This document shows, piece after piece, positions 2,201-62,530 of a DNA stretch of 64,000 nt; position 1 is the first letter of the stretch, and the number at the start of each line of letters is the position of its first letter. Source of the stretch: an uncultured Candidatus Saccharibacteria bacterium (lineage in GTDB: Bacteria; Patescibacteriota; Saccharimonadia; Saccharimonadales; JACDBH01); NCBI GenBank assembly GCA_964529785.1, contig CAZHAQ010000001.1, positions 37,502-101,501 on the forward strand, given 5' to 3'. The notes beneath the pieces were generated by a model. That model searched no databases and was not told where the DNA came from. It worked only from the letters and a program-made list of their open reading frames with translations. A program made the position numbers and the translations under genes.

Positions 2201-2980
2201 ATGAATAAAACACTTATAGTCGGCAACTGGAAAATGAATCTTAATACTATGCAGGCAAGCATACTGCTTCATAGGCTGCAGGAAAGAATTCGAATCTACA
2301 GGGATGTAGAGGTGGTGCTTGCCCCCAGTTTGCTGGTACTTCAGCCTTTAAGCTTACAGATTGACCGCCGAAAATTCAGGTTGGCAGCCCAGAATGCCTT
2401 TGCAAAAGACAGCGGTGCATACACTGGTGAAGTTAGCTTTACGATGCTTCGTGATCTTGCGCATTATGCGATTATTGGCCACTCAGAAAGAAGGTACATT
2501 TTTAACGAGACGCCGAAAGAGGTATCGGAGAAAGTTGATGCGGCCATACGAAACGGGATTACGCCTATTGTTTGCGTAGGCGAAACCAAGGCCGAGCGAT
2601 TGGCTGGACAAACCAAACGCGTTCTACATGATCAAGTAGTGGGTGCAGTAAAAGGCTTAACTTCTGAAGATATACACAATCTGGTTATTGCTTATGAGCC
2701 AGTATGGGCAATAGGTACAGGCGTAATTGCCACCCCTGAGCAAGCAGAGCAGGCGGTCGGCTTTATCAGACACAATATATATGAATTGTACGGCAAGAAA
2801 GCTTCCGAGAAGGTTAGAGTGCTATATGGTGGCAGTGTCGTTCCCGACGTAGCTACTGGTTTTTTAAAGATTAAAGGCGTGGATGGGCTATTAGTAGGTG
2901 GTGCAAGTATAAATTACCACCAGTTTTCGGCAATAGTAGATAGTGCTTACCGGCTTAGACAAGAGTTAAGAGATAAGTAA
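2201..2980 (+). CDS. tpiA: triosephosphate isomerase
   Basis: IVGNWKMN start, the AYEPVWAIGTG active-site motif and GHSERR. The pyk-pgk-tpiA order is conserved. Confidence 0.9.
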   Translation: MNKTLIVGNWKMNLNTMQASILLHRLQERIRIYRDVEVVLAPSLLVLQPLSLQIDRRKFRLAAQNAFAKDSGAYTGEVSFTMLRDLAHYAIIGHSERRYIFNETPKEVSEKVDAAIRNGITPIVCVGETKAERLAGQTKRVLHDQVVGAVKGLTSEDIHNLVIAYEPVWAIGTGVIATPEQAEQAVGFIRHNIYELYGKKASEKVRVLYGGSVVPDVATGFLKIKGVDGLLVGGASINYHQFSAIVDSAYRLRQELRDK

Positions 2981-2982
2981 TC

Positions 2983-3588
2983 ATGAGTCATGATGGTCTC
3001 TCGTCGGATGAATACAAGGTCATGGATGTATCCAGGCCTGGTAAAGGGAAAATAATGCCTACATCTCGGCCTGTTGTAGCGCCAGTGGTTTCAGGCGATC
3101 ACTCTGAAGTAGTAAAAGATATAGACGATGAAATTGGCTCTCATAGAGTTACTGGCTCTCAGCGGGTAATAGAGCCTCTTGGTAATATGGATCATAATGA
3201 TCACAGTGTTGAAGATAGCGAACTGAAAGATGATACAAGTGAGCCGGAGGAGACTGGCAAAGAAGCTGAAGAATTAAATAATGAAGCTGAGCCGGTATCA
3301 GATAATGAGCCCAGTACTAATAATTCACAGACTGGATCTGAGATGTCTGACGCTGCTGAAGTGGACGCATTAGCCTCTAAGGTAGAAGCTAAAAAACAGG
3401 CCGCTAAAGAAGCTAAGGAGAAGGCGGAAAGCGATGCTAAGCTGCAGGAGATGATAGACAGCAGGCAGTACGTAGTACCGATTAAAGGTGGCCGCTCAAG
3501 TTTAAGTATAGGCCTACTTGCAGTAGTTATAGCAGTGCTTCTGGTAATAGCTGCAGCAATAGCCAGCTATTTTCTACTTAATGCATAA
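2983..3588 (+). CDS. hypothetical acidic protein with a single C-terminal TM anchor
   Basis: 201 aa, highly acidic and low-complexity (D/E/S-rich). Ends in the hydrophobic stretch LSIGLLAVVIAVLLVIAAAIASYFLL. No recognisable domain. Confidence 0.35.
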   Translation: MSHDGLSSDEYKVMDVSRPGKGKIMPTSRPVVAPVVSGDHSEVVKDIDDEIGSHRVTGSQRVIEPLGNMDHNDHSVEDSELKDDTSEPEETGKEAEELNNEAEPVSDNEPSTNNSQTGSEMSDAAEVDALASKVEAKKQAAKEAKEKAESDAKLQEMIDSRQYVVPIKGGRSSLSIGLLAVVIAVLLVIAAAIASYFLLNA

Positions 3589-3633
3589 TGTGGTTTTACC
3601 GCCCCATGTAATGCTAAATTTTGCTACAATTAA

Positions 3634-6600
3634 TTGATGTCTACTAGTGAATTTAATCCGATTATTGACCCATGGGCCGACGAGGAGGCTAAAGTTGATG
3701 CCGACAGACTGTTAGTTGGCTTAAATAAAGAACAGCGCAGAGCAGTGCTTACGACTGATGGGCCATTGCTCATTCAAGCTGGAGCTGGCAGCGGCAAGAC
3801 TAAAACTTTGACGCATCGTATTGCATATATAATAGCTAGTAATAAAGCCACTCCATATAATATACTGGCCGTTACATTTACGAATAAAGCCGCTAAGGAA
3901 ATGCGCGAGCGTATCGCCGGGCTTCTTAATCAGGATGCGGATAATCGCAGCTTTATGCCGTTTATGGGTACATTCCATTCTATTTGCGTTCGGCTGCTTA
4001 GGCAGGACGGCGAGCATATTGGAGTACCAAGAAACTTTGTAATATTTGATGAAAGTGACCGGTTGAGTGCAATCAAACAGGCTAGCCGGCAATTGAAGCT
4101 GGATGAAAAAGCTTTTACAGCAAGAACTATAAGCAGTCTAATTAGCAGTGCTAAGAATGATTTAATTAGCCCGGAGGAGTATCTAGGGCTTGCAAACTCC
4201 CCAACGCAGTCGGCAGCCGCAAAGGTGTATCCGCTTTATCAAAAGACTTTGAAAGATGCGGGAGCGTTAGATTTTGATGATCTAATCGCTAAGACTGTAA
4301 GCATGCTGCAAAGCAACTCTAAAATTAGACAAAAATGGCAGGATCAATTTAAGTACGTCATGATTGACGAGTATCAGGATACTAATACTGCTCAGTACAA
4401 TCTCGTTAAATATTTGACAAATAAGCAAAGAAATATTGCAGTAGTTGGGGATGACTGGCAGTGTTTCCATCCGGACACTTTAATAGAAACGGCGGATGGC
4501 TTTAAGAAAATAAAAGATGTTAGTTCAGGAGAGTTCGTAAGGTCGGCTAGCGGCTACGGTAAATCTGGATTTTTTAAAGTCACTAACAAGAAAAAATTTA
4601 ACTTCAATACTGATTTGATGCAAATAAAAACTGCATCCGGTAGGGTCATAAACTGCACCCCAAACCATCTATTATTTACTAGATGGGGAAAAACTGATTC
4701 ATATTTTGTTTATTTAATGTATTCAAGAGATAAGGGTTATAGGATCGGCACAGCTAAAGGATCAAGGTTTGATGGAAAAAAAGATGACATTGGCTTGAGG
4801 GTCAGAGCAAATCAAGAGAGAGCTCAAAAAATGTGGATTCTAAAAGTATGCACTACAAAAGAAGAAGCAATATACACTGAAATGCTATTTGCGTATAAAT
4901 TTGGAATTCCTATGACATTGTTTTTTTCTTATAAAAACCGATCAATGGGCCTCAGTCAAGAATATATTGACCTTCTTTATAAAGAGATAGATACAGTTTC
5001 AAGAGCTAAGATAATCTTTGATGAGTTAGGGCTTAGTGCTGATTATCCGCATTTTACACCTCAGGCAACAACTAGGTACGGTATAGAGAACTGTAATATA
5101 AATGTAGTTTTATTCGGAGATAAGCGTACCACAGTATCAAGCCCATGGTCTGCTAGTAGAATATCTGTAAATACTTCAAATAATAAAATTTTAGAAATTT
5201 TTAAAAACTTAGGCTACACAGTAAGGCCGGGTCGGGCAGGTACACATCGATCTGAGATCCATAATTTAGATTATGGAAAGATTGAACAGGCTTTAGAAAA
5301 ACTTCAGAATGATTCTGGATCTGATGCACGAATTTGCAAGTATGCATTTCTAACTTCAAATAAATTTTTGTTCACTCCAGCAGGTCAAGTGCATCCTGGC
5401 ATGCTGCTGCCTGTTGTGCAGGGCGAAGATATCGTAGAAGAAGTTGTCGAGGAAGTAGTAAGAACTCCTTACTCAGGGCTTGTTTATGACCTTGATGTTG
5501 AGAAAGTACATAATTATTCTGCCAATCAAATAATCGTTCATAATTCCATATATAGTTGGAGGGGCGCAGATTTTCAGAATATATTGAATTTTGAAAAAGA
5601 CTATAAAAATACGACTGTTATAAAGTTGGAACAAAACTATCGCAGTACAAAATCTATACTTGATGCAGCCCACGCTGTTATTAGCAAGAACCAGCAAAGG
5701 TCAGAAAAGAAACTATGGACCGATGAATCTACTGGACTACCGGTGCAGATTATGCAGGTTCAAAACCAGAGCGCAGAAGGTGAGGCTATAATTAGACGAA
5801 TAGAAGCTATGGTTAGTGCTGGGCGGCGAAAGTATAGTGATTACGCCGTTCTTTACAGGACCAATGCTCAGAGTCGGGCAATTGAGGAAATGTTTGTCCG
5901 TTACGGAGTGCCATACAAGGTAATTGGCGGAGTTAGATTCTACGACCGTAAAGAAATAAAAGATATAGTCGCGTATTTAAGGCTAATTTTCCAGCCAGAT
6001 GATGCAGTTAGTTTTGAGAGAATTGTTAACGTGCCGACTAGAGGCATTGGGCCTAAATCATTGGATAATTTCAGAGTTTGGGCAAATCAAGCCGGAAGCA
6101 TTCTAAGAGGACTTGAGACGGTTGCCGACTGCCCATCGCTTACTCCAAAGGCAAAAAAAGGCTTTACTGAGATTGCCGACATCATATTGTCTTACGGTCG
6201 GCTAATAGAAGACACGGCCGTGTCGGGTGTTATTGATAGCCTATTAAGAAGGCTAGATTATATGTCGTACTTAGACGATGGTACTTTGCAGGGAGAGTCG
6301 CGCCAAGAAAACGTCCGCGAACTTATTTCAGTAGCTAAAGCTTACCAGGATGTTGGGCTTGAGGGATTCTTGGAAGAGGTAAGTCTTATTAGCGATCTAG
6401 ATAATGCTGATATATCAGCAAATTCAGTTACGCTAATGACCCTGCATGCCGCTAAGGGCCTAGAATTCCCGGCTGTATTCATGATAGGCCTGGAAGAAAC
6501 TGTATTGCCTCACAGCCGTGCATTATATGATCAGCGGGAGATGGAAGAGGAGCGCCGGCTGATGTATGTCGGTATGACAAGAGCTCGTCAGGAACTTTAC

Positions 6601-6915
6601 CTGACTTACGCTACCTCAAGAGCCTTGTATGGCGGGGTGCAGTATAATCCACCTTCGCGTTTCTTGTCCGAAATAGACAATAAGTCAATTGTCGGAGCAG
6701 AATCGCTTTATCCCACTTCTCAAAGTGAAGCAAGCCAACAGATTGACGATGAGCCTAGATATGTAGTCGAATTAAATGAAGGCGACAGAGTAAGCCACCA
6801 GGCATTTGGCGAGGGTGTAGTGGTAGATGTAGATGGTGATAATGTAGCGGTCCACTTTAAGTCTAAAGGCGTTAAGAAGCTAAATACTGCTTTCGCGCCA
6901 CTGGAAAAAATATAA
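3634..6915 (+). CDS. uvrD: UvrD/PcrA-type ATP-dependent DNA helicase interrupted by an intein
   Basis: Walker A AGAGSGKT, motif Ia TFTNKAA and Q-motif. Motif III (VVGDDWQ...SIYSWRGA) is split by 361 aa beginning with Cys and ending in His-Asn followed by Ser. Confidence 0.85.
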   Translation: MMSTSEFNPIIDPWADEEAKVDADRLLVGLNKEQRRAVLTTDGPLLIQAGAGSGKTKTLTHRIAYIIASNKATPYNILAVTFTNKAAKEMRERIAGLLNQDADNRSFMPFMGTFHSICVRLLRQDGEHIGVPRNFVIFDESDRLSAIKQASRQLKLDEKAFTARTISSLISSAKNDLISPEEYLGLANSPTQSAAAKVYPLYQKTLKDAGALDFDDLIAKTVSMLQSNSKIRQKWQDQFKYVMIDEYQDTNTAQYNLVKYLTNKQRNIAVVGDDWQCFHPDTLIETADGFKKIKDVSSGEFVRSASGYGKSGFFKVTNKKKFNFNTDLMQIKTASGRVINCTPNHLLFTRWGKTDSYFVYLMYSRDKGYRIGTAKGSRFDGKKDDIGLRVRANQERAQKMWILKVCTTKEEAIYTEMLFAYKFGIPMTLFFSYKNRSMGLSQEYIDLLYKEIDTVSRAKIIFDELGLSADYPHFTPQATTRYGIENCNINVVLFGDKRTTVSSPWSASRISVNTSNNKILEIFKNLGYTVRPGRAGTHRSEIHNLDYGKIEQALEKLQNDSGSDARICKYAFLTSNKFLFTPAGQVHPGMLLPVVQGEDIVEEVVEEVVRTPYSGLVYDLDVEKVHNYSANQIIVHNSIYSWRGADFQNILNFEKDYKNTTVIKLEQNYRSTKSILDAAHAVISKNQQRSEKKLWTDESTGLPVQIMQVQNQSAEGEAIIRRIEAMVSAGRRKYSDYAVLYRTNAQSRAIEEMFVRYGVPYKVIGGVRFYDRKEIKDIVAYLRLIFQPDDAVSFERIVNVPTRGIGPKSLDNFRVWANQAGSILRGLETVADCPSLTPKAKKGFTEIADIILSYGRLIEDTAVSGVIDSLLRRLDYMSYLDDGTLQGESRQENVRELISVAKAYQDVGLEGFLEEVSLISDLDNADISANSVTLMTLHAAKGLEFPAVFMIGLEETVLPHSRALYDQREMEEERRLMYVGMTRARQELYLTYATSRALYGGVQYNPPSRFLSEIDNKSIVGAESLYPTSQSEASQQIDDEPRYVVELNEGDRVSHQAFGEGVVVDVDGDNVAVHFKSKGVKKLNTAFAPLEKI
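4462..5544 (+). other. intein (protein-splicing element) inside uvrD, 361 aa
   Basis: Starts with Cys (CFHPDTLIETADG), contains block B TPNH, and ends in the C-terminal splicing block VYDLDVEKVHNYSANQIIVHN, followed by extein Ser. Joining the exteins restores the helicase motif III GDDWQSIYSWRGA. The central 200 aa is a presumed endonuclease-like domain with only a degenerate LAGLIDADG-like stretch (YLMYSRDKGY). Confidence 0.75.
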
Positions 6916-6916
6916 C

Positions 6917-7390
6917 GTGAAGCTCTGGTTGATTTTAGGTAAGACGGTGTTTGTTTTAGGCTGGCCGGTTTGGTATTTATATTTTAAGTTAGTGCCTAGG
7001 CGAAGCCGAGTAGTGGTTGTTTGGCAGGATAAAGTGCTGCTTGTAAATAGCTGGTTGAGCGGTAGTACCTGGGGCCTTCCTGGGGGCGGTGCACATGCCG
7101 GTGAGTCTCTTGAAGCTTCCGCTATCCGTGAGCTAAAAGAAGAAACCGGTTTAATAGCTGACGAGGCAGCACTTCAGAAGCTGGATACCTATTACCATAA
7201 TGAGCATGGTCTCAAATATGAAGCTACTTTTTATTTATTAAAATTAAGTAACCCAAATCAACTAAAGCGGCAGAGGCTTGAAATAGCCCGGCTTGGCTGG
7301 TTTTCAGAAGCTGAATTCGCAAGCATGAATATAAGCAGCGACACCAAGCGCATACTGGCTAACTTTAATAAAAAAATTTGGTATAATTGA
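6917..7390 (+). CDS. NUDIX hydrolase with an N-terminal TM segment
   Basis: Nudix box GLPGGGAHAGESLEASAIRELKEETG. GTG start immediately after the uvrD stop. Confidence 0.75.
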   Translation: MKLWLILGKTVFVLGWPVWYLYFKLVPRRSRVVVVWQDKVLLVNSWLSGSTWGLPGGGAHAGESLEASAIRELKEETGLIADEAALQKLDTYYHNEHGLKYEATFYLLKLSNPNQLKRQRLEIARLGWFSEAEFASMNISSDTKRILANFNKKIWYN

Positions 7391-61021: not shown

Positions 61022-62530
61022 GTGAATAGTAAATTAGAGAAAAAGCTAAAAGATCTGCCTACCACTCCAGGCGTATATTTTCACAAAAACGTTAAAGGAG
61101 AGATAATTTATGTTGGCAAGGCAGCGGTTCTAAGGAACCGCGTTAGGCAGTATTTTCAAGCTTCTCGCAATAGAGATCCTAAGACTGAACTACTTGTCAG
61201 TGAAATCGACGACTTAGACTGGACGGAAGTAGAAAGCGAGATTGAAGCACTGTTTTTAGAAGCTGAGATGATCCGCCGCTATATGCCCCGATATAATATT
61301 CTGCTTAGGGATGATAAATCGGTTTCTTATGTTCGAATTGACTATAACAGCGACTATCCGACGGTAAGTGTTACTCGCCGGCCCTTGGATGATGATGCCC
61401 GTTATTTCGGTCCATATCTCAGTGCTAGTTCAATACGACAAGCATTAAAAATATTAAGACGAATATTCCCATTTGCTACGTCTAAATCTATTAATAAAAA
61501 ACGTGCTAGTTTGCACTATCATTTAGGTTTAGATCCGGGACTGGAAGAAGGGCGTACTAGTCTATCTGATTATCGGGCTAATCTTCGCAAGCTTATTGAT
61601 GTCATCCAGGGCAAACGAGTTCAAGTTATAAGAGAAATTGAAAAAGAGATGAAGCGAGCTGCTAAAGAGCAGGATTTTGAATTTGCAGCCAGGTTAAGAA
61701 ACCAGGTTTTTGCGCTAAATAATCTTCAGAAGCAGGTACTATTTAGCGATAAGGAAAATTTGGATCTCAGTCGGGATCATGCGCTTCAAGATTTGTCCGA
61801 ACTGCTGGGCCTGAACAAGATTCCCCGAAGGATTGAAGGTTATGATATTTCTCACATGTCCGGTACTGACACGGTTGCGAGTATGGTCGTATTTACTAAT
61901 GGTGTTTCCAACAAAGGAGAGTACCGAAAGTTTAAGATGCGCATTCCTGGCAACGATGATTTTGCTCACATGAGAGAGGTTTTATCAAGGCGATTAAGCG
62001 AAAAGAATACTAAGAATTGGCCAAAGCCTGATCTGTTCCTGATAGATGGCGGAAAGGGTCAGCTAGGAAGCGCTCTAGGAGTATTAAAAGAAAAGGGCAT
62101 AAGTTTGCCGGCTATAGGGATTGCCAAGCAGTTTGAGGAAATAATTATTAAGAAGGATTGGCCAAGCGCTCAGTTAAACAACGATAAATTGTCTGACTTA
62201 GGCGGTACCGTTGTGCAGAGTGAAGATTTTTTGACTGTCCGATTACCTCAGAGCTCTCATATTATTAAACTTCTGCAGCGAATACGTGATGAATCTCATA
62301 GGTTTGCAGTTAGCTATCACAGCTCACTTAAAGTAAAACGACAGACTGCCAGCTTGCTTGATGATATTCCAGGGATAGGGCCAACCACTAAAAAGAAGCT
62401 TCTAAGAACATTCGGGAGCTATAAAGGAATTGAACAGGCTAGAAAACAGGATCTTGAGGTTGTGTTAGGCGAAAAAAAGGCACACGTTTTAAGACAATAT
62501 CTTCGCGCTAATAAGCGTGGTGCGCTATAA
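61022..62530 (+). CDS. uvrC: excinuclease ABC subunit C
   Basis: GIY-YIG domain (PGVYFHKNVKGEIIYVGKA...RVRQYF), the UvrBC-interaction region, an RNase H-like endonuclease domain and a C-terminal HhH. GTG start. Confidence 0.85.
   Translation: MNSKLEKKLKDLPTTPGVYFHKNVKGEIIYVGKAAVLRNRVRQYFQASRNRDPKTELLVSEIDDLDWTEVESEIEALFLEAEMIRRYMPRYNILLRDDKSVSYVRIDYNSDYPTVSVTRRPLDDDARYFGPYLSASSIRQALKILRRIFPFATSKSINKKRASLHYHLGLDPGLEEGRTSLSDYRANLRKLIDVIQGKRVQVIREIEKEMKRAAKEQDFEFAARLRNQVFALNNLQKQVLFSDKENLDLSRDHALQDLSELLGLNKIPRRIEGYDISHMSGTDTVASMVVFTNGVSNKGEYRKFKMRIPGNDDFAHMREVLSRRLSEKNTKNWPKPDLFLIDGGKGQLGSALGVLKEKGISLPAIGIAKQFEEIIIKKDWPSAQLNNDKLSDLGGTVVQSEDFLTVRLPQSSHIIKLLQRIRDESHRFAVSYHSSLKVKRQTASLLDDIPGIGPTTKKKLLRTFGSYKGIEQARKQDLEVVLGEKKAHVLRQYLRANKRGAL

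Follow-up and report, generated by a model that had tools for sequence, protein, structure and literature searches.

Inteins in UvrD helicases are well established: a 2016 survey by Novikova et al. (PMC4760082) counted 16 of them, in Acidobacteria, Actinobacteria, Deinococcus-Thermus, Firmicutes, and Proteobacteria, with Saccharibacteria not among the phyla represented. A further representative is carried by Escherichia phage PaulScherrer, a phi92-like coliphage, whose record (MZ501100.1) annotates an "intein-containing UvrD / Rep family helicase precursor" and marks the intein as a mature peptide. Here, we describe an intein of 361 amino acids (aa) in the pcrA/uvrD gene of an uncultured Candidatus Saccharibacteria bacterium, together with its central domain, which is probably a divergent GIY-YIG-like nuclease. 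The gene lies in a 64,000-nucleotide stretch of contig CAZHAQ010000001.1 (assembly GCA_964529785.1, positions 37,502 to 101,501), hereafter the window, in which all coordinates below are given. The window intein shares with the known UvrD/PcrA/Rep inteins the host family, the insertion site (GDxxQ/[SC]IY.[FW]RG, where the slash marks the point of insertion), the class-1 splicing residues, and the central domain, and is 28% identical to the PaulScherrer intein (MVVYLMWRKDLGFRVG...YGIPTCVF...YPHW; E = 3e-12). Unlike the known bacterial and phage UvrD inteins, it resides in a Saccharibacteria chromosome. The endonuclease type of UvrD inteins was named neither in the open-access literature searched nor in record MZ501100.1.

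Known homing systems invite comparison. As in the LAGLIDADG inteins PI-SceI, PI-PfuI, TliVMA, and PhoVMA, which gave the best whole-model Foldseek E-values (2e-9 to 1e-6), the Hint domain is split by an in-frame endonuclease region, here putative, of ~220 aa; unlike these inteins, the window intein has neither LAGLIDADG motifs nor matches to the corresponding Pfam families, and only the Hint domains superpose. With I-TevI, I-BmoI, the Seg proteins, and the N-terminal domain of UvrC, the central domain appears to share a Tyr on the first predicted strand, a Y/F-x-I-G motif on the second, a conserved Arg, and a Glu on the helix following the third strand, and with the GIY-YIG homing endonucleases it shares the succession of catalytic domain, linker, and separate DNA-binding module (catalytic domain and DNA-binding module both putative in the window intein). 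It departs from GIY-YIG enzymes in an additional β-hairpin between β2 and α1, in invariant E119, D122, and W125 residues, in a C-terminal module that is a β-sheet domain rather than a NUMOD or helix-turn-helix element, and in a score below the Pfam cut-off. Furthermore, the known GIY-YIG homing endonucleases are intron-encoded or free-standing, whereas this domain is located in frame inside Hint. The fractured genes described by Dassa et al. in 2009 (PMC2677866) likewise combine a GIY-YIG-type nuclease with an intein locus in DNA-metabolism genes, including helicases, but there a free-standing GIY-YIG or Vsr-like open reading frame (ORF) separates the halves of a split intein, whereas here the domain is contiguous and in frame within a cis-splicing intein. 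The same study stated that GIY-YIG nucleases were not known within inteins, Dunin-Horkawicz et al. in 2006 (PMC1564403) did not find members of the superfamily in inteins, and a 2025 survey (bioRxiv 10.1101/2025.01.02.630785) recognized LAGLIDADG, HNH, Vsr-like, and EndoVII-like arrangements only. Across reviews and surveys of 2006 to 2025, LAGLIDADG and HNH are the sole nucleases given as in-frame parts of inteins, with Vsr-like or EndoVII-like arrangements as rarer additions. The open-access literature yielded no account of either an in-frame GIY-YIG nuclease in an intein or the nuclease of a UvrD intein, subscription papers and InBase lying outside the scope of the search. As an intein, the element is thus of a known kind, in a phylum not covered by the 2016 survey; judged from sequence, the endonuclease type would be the new element.

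The helicase precursor and its parts are arranged as follows:

3634 to 6915, forward strand: pcrA/uvrD precursor ORF, 1093 aa, TTG start, stop codon included (Pfam and TIGR01073 matches).
3634 to 4461, forward strand: N-extein, with the first half of motif III (VVGDDWQ, 4441 to 4461) at its end (gapless alignment to 1pjr).
4462 to 5544, forward strand: intein, 361 aa, Cys1 to Asn361 (translation, intein models, predicted fold, invariant residues).
4462 to 4695, forward strand: N-terminal half of Hint, residues 1 to 78, with block A starting at Cys1 (4462 to 4500) and block B, T66-P-N-H69, at ~4645 to 4680 (TIGR01445 on residues 1 to 73; C1, T66, and H69 invariant, n = 76).
4696 to 4941, forward strand: probable GIY-YIG-like nuclease subdomain, residues 79 to 160 (conservation, sub-threshold PF01541 matches, hhalign against UvrC and I-TevI families, predicted β/α order).
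4942 to 5085, forward strand: helical linker, residues 161 to 208, with conserved IDT178 and YP196H197 motifs (AlphaFold2 helices 166 to 175 and 178 to 189; conservation).
5086 to 5355, forward strand: β-β-α-β-β-α module, residues 209 to 298, putative DNA-binding (AlphaFold2 secondary structure, weak Foldseek similarity, mini-intein alignment).
5356 to 5544, forward strand: C-terminal half of Hint, residues 299 to 361, with block F (VYD343LDVEKVH350N) and block G (IIVH360N361) (TIGR01443, alignments to PDB inteins, invariant residues).
5545 to 6915, forward strand: C-extein, beginning with Ser+1 (5545 to 5547) and the second half of motif III (SIYSWRGA, 5545 to 5568) (ORF, 1pjr alignment).

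The precursor scores 823.7 bits against TIGR01073 (pcrA) and contains the Pfam domains UvrD-helicase, UvrD_C, and PcrA_UvrD_tudor. The first-pass annotation had placed a 361-aa intein at 4462 to 5544 of this 1093-aa ORF and noted that its removal restores helicase motif III, and both claims hold. When the insert is removed, VVGDDWQ joins SIYSWRGA, and the resulting 732-aa sequence aligns over residues 24 to 732 with Geobacillus stearothermophilus PcrA (1pjr; E = 2e-193) without a gap at the junction (niavvgddwqsiyswrgad in the joined exteins versus nicavgdadqsiyrwrgad in 1pjr), which locates the insert between the Gln and Ser of motif III. In PcrA, this motif couples ATP hydrolysis to DNA binding. 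As for the beginning of the ORF, the listed TTG is directly followed by an ATG at 3637, which is probably the true start, because P0287, the same protein as deposited in the database, has 1092 aa.

The translation of the insert begins with CFHPDTLIETADG and ends in IIVHN, the next residue being Ser. It matches the intein models above their cut-offs, namely, Pfam Intein_splicing (PF14890; 56.7 bits, cut-off 35.8), TIGR01445 for the N-terminal region (39.5, cut-off 24.5), and TIGR01443 for the C-terminal region (22.5, cut-off 15.6). In the AlphaFold model, computed from a 21-sequence alignment (predicted local distance difference test score, pLDDT, 88.5; predicted template modeling score, pTM, 0.86), the terminal segments form a Hint domain, which compares with mini-inteins at target-normalized Foldseek template modeling (TM) scores of 0.75 to 0.83 (gp41-1, 0.83; Mtu RecA, 0.82; Ssp DnaB, 0.76). 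Blocks A, B, F, and G are present as first described, as is Ser+1, and re-inspection bore out the HN/S junction: the window copy contains Cys1, T66xxH69, D343, H360-N361, and Ser+1, with C1, T66, H69, D343, H350, H360, and N361 invariant in 76 aligned copies and Ser+1 present in all complete loci. We therefore consider it confirmed that 4462 to 5544 is a genuine and correctly delimited class-1 intein. Because all splicing residues are intact, the window copy is expected to splice, an expectation strengthened by the fact that a helicase split in motif III should otherwise be non-functional, while the exteins change mostly synonymously. The chemistry, as read from these residues and the Hint fold, would begin with an N-S acyl shift at Cys1, proceed through transesterification to Ser+1, and conclude with cyclization of Asn361 and an O-N shift, leaving the free 361-aa intein and a 732-aa helicase in which motif III is whole again.

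The same element was recovered in at least 101 species (80 loci kept), nearly all of them metagenome-assembled genomes of Saccharibacteria/Saccharimonadales, when one genome per GTDB species was scanned with the subdomain alignment. About 65 complete host ORFs read VVGDDWQ/C...HN/SIYSWRGA and encode inteins of 355 to 363 aa. A comparison with intein-free relatives, set beforehand, favors the intein interpretation: of the 120 proteins closest to the spliced helicase, 105 are uninterrupted (VVGDDWQSIYSWRGAD, ~725 to 735 aa) and 13 contain the intein, with the remaining 2 comprising an intein-free protein with Cys at the +1 position and one that does not fit the junction pattern. In one intein-free orthologue (P0296), the site reads GDDWQCIYSWRGAD, with Cys replacing the Ser that is +1 in intein-bearing alleles. 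The distribution is thus patchy, and the nearest relatives of the window helicase (80% to 83% extein identity) are intein-free. One intein-free locus (L123/L124) shares the gene order of the window (TIM, hypothetical, UvrD, NUDIX, G5 protein, PCC, KsgA), and its intein-less site reads GTTGGCGAACAAAAAAATATTGCCGTAGTTGGCGATGATTGGCAG/TCTATTTATTCATGGCGTGGAGCTGATTTTCAGAATATTTTGAAT. The closest intein to the window copy among the 76 aligned Saccharibacteria-type copies is 65% identical, and only that of a same-species strain is closer. Within the window, Hint-half and central-domain hidden Markov models match the uvrD copy alone, yielding no second intein of this family, and the intein contains no alternative-frame or antisense ORF of ≥80 aa.

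The central insert (~220 aa, residues ~79 to 298) has no above-threshold match in Pfam, NCBIfam, or PHROG, its profiles retrieved nothing meaningful among PDB sequences, and PHROGs and NCBIfam scans of 42 mutually diverse members revealed no recurrent family. Nevertheless, it is strongly conserved. Across 120 copies at ≤~50% identity, Y84, L85, M86, G92, R94, G96, G111, R115, Q118, E119, D122, W125, A136, E140, Y147, G148, P150, F154, T178, P196, and H197 are invariant or nearly so, and in the 76 Saccharibacteria-type inteins, residues 79 to 160 are the best conserved intein part, with a mean pairwise identity of 71%, versus 64% for the exteins, 50% to 52% for the Hint halves, and 52% for the C-terminal module. 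Given its high conservation and uniform length, the domain is not decayed as a family, and the earlier suggestion that the endonuclease may be decayed is wrong at that level; for the window copy, it is possible (see below).

The organization of the best conserved part points to the GIY-YIG superfamily, which is defined by "GIY" and "YIG" motifs on 2 strands, followed by an Arg and then a Glu (PMC1564403). In the AlphaFold2 model, the first subdomain consists of β-strands at 81 to 88 and 92 to 99, a short hairpin, an α-helix at 111 to 119, a β-strand at 123 to 130, and an α-helix at 133 to 147. The conserved pattern, VY84LM...GY93R94IG96.T...R102...R115.NQE119..D122..W125...EA..Y.E140...YGIP, places an invariant V-Y84-L on β1 and Y/F93-R94-I-G96 on β2, and the motifs of the subdomain can be written YFVY84LMY, GY93R94IG96, R102, G111..R115.NQE119..(D/Q)122..W125, EA..Y.E140, and (Y/F)147GIP150..F154. 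R102 (conserved in 83% of copies) or R115 (99%) is a candidate for the counterpart of I-TevI R27. E140, conserved in 99% of copies, aligns in hhalign with I-TevI E75, which we take to be the metal-binding Glu, and with the Glu of the UvrC EAL.LE helix, presumably the catalytic one. Y84, Y93/R94, R102 or R115, and E140 are therefore candidate active-site residues, and the insert as a whole would comprise a GIY-YIG-like catalytic subdomain, a helical linker, and a β-sheet module that probably binds DNA.

Profile comparisons lead in the same direction. In a Pfam scan of the 42 members, GIY-YIG (PF01541; gathering cut-off 22.6 bits) was the sole family matched by more than one. With the domain cut to its first 105 residues, the best match (20.8 bits, E = 4.7e-4) places residues 10 to 73 on profile positions 1 to 68 of 78 and the second (18.4 bits) residues 11 to 78 on positions 2 to 69; these and further matches of 12.6 and 11.8 bits are all in register. 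Because hhalign against the single sequences of I-TevI and the window UvrC was too weak to use, we compared family alignments, with controls. Against a UvrC N-terminal family seeded with the window uvrC at 61022, the domain obtained P = 0.004 and a score of 21.9, versus 12.5 ± 2.7 for column shuffles (1 of 150 reached it), and against an I-TevI family (24 distinct sequences from the 36 usable of 41 IMG/VR loci returned) P = 0.009 and a score of 18.3, versus 10.8 ± 2.4 (3 of 150). The negative controls (the second subdomain and the 2 Hint halves) gave P of 0.1 to 0.8, and at low stringency both the GIY and the YIG motifs are in register with UvrC. Even the positive control, in which the I-TevI family was aligned with the UvrC family, reached only P = 7e-4 and 26% probability, and weak numbers are accordingly to be expected for this superfamily. 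Among viral models (BFVD), the Foldseek matches that follow 3 true homologues include an endonuclease of a group I intron, 2 NUMOD proteins, a SegE-like protein, and a "GIY-YIG-like endonuclease," these GIY-YIG-type matches being weak (E of 1e-2 to 1e-1). We judge it fairly likely that the central domain is GIY-YIG-like, probably as a divergent member. With regard to the UvrC that served as seed, its ORF (61022 to 62530, GTG start, N-terminal GIY-YIG domain GVYFHKNVKGEIIYVGKA) is only 502 aa long; UvrC proteins have a length of ~600 aa.

Among Saccharibacteria and related lineages, the element appears to go through an active homing cycle, as several independent signs suggest. In a comparison limited to pairwise identities, those of the intein follow those of the exteins only loosely (r = 0.25). 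On a contig of candidate division Kazan (METE01000011.1; L010), the intein is 62% to 69% identical to Saccharibacteria inteins, with exteins at 47% to 51%, which looks like a transfer between phyla of the Candidate Phyla Radiation (CPR). The window intein has a GC content of 36.1% (28% at third codon positions, GC3), versus 42.8% to 44.0% for the exteins (GC3 40%) and 42.5% for the whole window. Mini-inteins occupy the same site (P0306, 236 aa; P0343, 233 aa; P0016, partial); they cleanly lack residues ~75 to 200, that is, the GIY-like part and linker, and keep the C-terminal β-sheet module and Hint. Under the homing-cycle model, nuclease-deleted forms are predicted once an allele is fixed.

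A contig from a sister strain in another sample (L125; Logan SRR29754121), which is 99.56% identical to window positions 2643 to 6978, adds a view of recent change. Within uvrD, it differs from the window at 16 positions in 2196 bp of extein (12 synonymous versus 4 non-synonymous) and at 1 in 1083 bp of intein (binomial P ~0.01), and the differences nearest to the intein are 47 bp upstream and 87 bp downstream. This asymmetry of single-nucleotide polymorphisms fits a recent spread of the intein by gene conversion into diverged alleles and suggests that recent homing, with short co-conversion tracts, has left the intein younger than the sequence on either side. In such a cycle, the free intein or the precursor would cut intein-less pcrA/uvrD alleles near the motif III coding sequence, and repair from the intein-carrying allele would copy the intein in. 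The intein is probably still mobile. Our overall reading, a class-1 pcrA/uvrD intein with a divergent GIY-YIG-like nuclease, linker, and β-sheet module in active homing, is one we hold to be likely, with the nuclease assignment and activity being what we infer from the comparisons above.

Several observations weigh against it. An invariant Arg is inserted after the second Tyr (YRIG), and that Tyr is replaced by Phe in 28% of copies. All PF01541 scores are below the 22.6-bit cut-off, and the window copy itself gave no match; because the curated cut-off is not reached, we do not file the domain as a GIY-YIG member. The hhalign probabilities are <10%, every GIY-YIG signal falls below the usual significance thresholds, the best PDB matches of the central model are LAGLIDADG enzymes (see below), and the polymorphism asymmetry rests on 17 differences. 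Furthermore, the window copy deviates from consensus: residue 122 is Gln, where 95% of 120 copies have Asp and 73 of the 76 Saccharibacteria copies Asp or Glu; residue 147 is Phe, where 75 of the 76 have Tyr; and residue 210 is Asn, where 63 of the 76 have Arg. By these substitutions, it might be impaired as a predicted nuclease. It retains Y84, Y93, R94, R102, R115, E119, and E140, and D122Q need not be disabling, because the PaulScherrer intein likewise has Gln at that position.

The alternative that fares best accepts the intein as genuine but sees its central domain as DNA-binding, structural, or regulatory (tuning splicing, for instance) rather than as a nuclease, and as maintained by host selection instead of homing. 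The sub-threshold level of every nuclease-family signal, the retention of the C-terminal module even in mini-inteins, and the off-consensus residues of the window copy at D122, Y147, and R210 would suit such a domain, and its conservation above that of the exteins could reflect a benefit to the host. However, were the domain beneficial to the host, its absence from 105 of the 120 closest orthologues would not be expected, nor would the incongruence between intein and exteins, the foreign GC3, or the clean deletion derivatives. In addition, the invariant Tyr, several Arg, and 2 Glu residues are arranged as in GIY-YIG active sites, and inteins inserted at other helicase motifs, or residing in phage genes, come with the same domain. 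On balance, we regard a non-nuclease role as unlikely.

Considerably less probable is a decayed LAGLIDADG homing endonuclease. Its case is structural: the best Foldseek PDB matches of the central model are I-LtrI, I-CvuI (79 columns, 22% identity), and I-OnuI (E ~1e-2), and the β-β-α-β-β-α order of the C-terminal module resembles a LAGLIDADG half. These matches, followed by eIF1, PII, and MotA-CTD, are putatively attributed to that module of the predicted model. The degenerate LAGLIDADG-like stretch noted in the first-pass annotation turned out to be no real motif, as no LAGLIDADG Pfam family matches the window copy (E ≤ 1) or any of the 42 diverse relatives (E ≤ 10). Neither is there a pair of conserved helices with an acidic end; instead, the insert opens with β-strands, and the motifs that it conserves differ in kind. 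When full LAGLIDADG inteins are superposed on the model, the Hint part alone fits (TM 0.25 to 0.29, root mean square deviation [rmsd] 22 to 25 Å), and the high conservation and constant length of the domain are at odds with decay. HNH, Vsr-like (EDxHD), and PD-(D/E)xK nucleases were likewise considered and rejected: the 42 members have no such Pfam match, no conserved His/Cys clusters, and no EDxHD motif.

Finally, that the insert is a lineage-specific, non-splicing UvrD domain (Hint or bacterial intein-like) retained in the mature helicase is highly improbable, since the insert splits a conserved and functionally important motif, the class-1 splicing residues and Ser+1 are all invariant, syntenic orthologues without the insert read VVGDDWQSIYSWRGAD, and related phage copies in GenBank are annotated as inteins with mature peptides.

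The GIY-YIG-like central domain extends far beyond the Saccharibacteria set. A profile search against 1.84 billion representative proteins matched 1742 clusters at E ≤ 1e-3 and 1038 at E ≤ 1e-10. In the best 150 of the 1742 clusters, the domain is nearly always found at GDxxQ/C...HN/[SC]IY.[WF]RG, ~330 residues into a helicase of ~1000 to 1100 aa, and this motif III site is common to very diverse UvrD/PcrA/Rep-like proteins. Several superfamily 1 (SF1)-type helicases of 1078 to 2536 aa (P0056, P0073, P0081, P0086, P0106, P0141, P0135, P0139, and P0156) contain 2 to 3 inteins with the same central domain, inserted at DE/C (motif II), GDDKQ/C (motif III), and GT.H/C. Apparently, several helicase motifs have been colonized by the nuclease family. 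A close structural match to the central domain in BFVD is the viral protein A0A8S5TZY8 from Myoviridae sp. ctCuC1, labeled "Adenine specific DNA methyltransferase" (127 columns, rmsd 2.1 Å, 28% identity), on account of which the domain may also occur in non-helicase inteins.

Free-standing copies of the central domain were considered and discarded, as the short matches are fragments that start at an internal Met or at contig ends. Two ORFs of 362 to 367 aa (P0095 and P0110) resemble complete inteins of this family, with Met rather than Cys at the start and SN or SS rather than HN at the end; they may represent stand-alone or degenerate derivatives or be artifacts of gene calling. In a word-index search, intein homologues were nearly all partial proteins on contigs of 0.8 to 10 kb, whereas complete copies were numerous in the genome scan; metagenome assemblies or gene calls may tend to be interrupted in the intein region.

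UvrD/PcrA inteins as such are ordinary, and it is the endonuclease part that would matter and be noteworthy if the nuclease assignment is confirmed. The broadest formulation, which we put forward tentatively and at somewhat less than even confidence, is that of an undescribed large family of at least 1742 protein clusters (50% identity) from CPR, other bacteria, and phi92-like coliphages, with an in-frame divergent GIY-YIG nuclease and a β-sheet DNA-binding module, the first such in inteins, specialized for SF1 helicase motifs and still homing in Saccharibacteria. If the GIY-YIG assignment is true, a nuclease class would be added to intein biology, and a very abundant intein family would have gone unclassified, including copies in phages of Escherichia coli that are amenable to laboratory culture. 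The domain would also offer a compact new scaffold for site-specific nucleases with a target, the motif III coding sequence, that is known in advance. For the Saccharibacteria themselves, the intein-free nearest relatives, the mini derivatives, and an intein younger than its flanks suggest that homing could be studied in uncultivated CPR bacteria from metagenomes alone.

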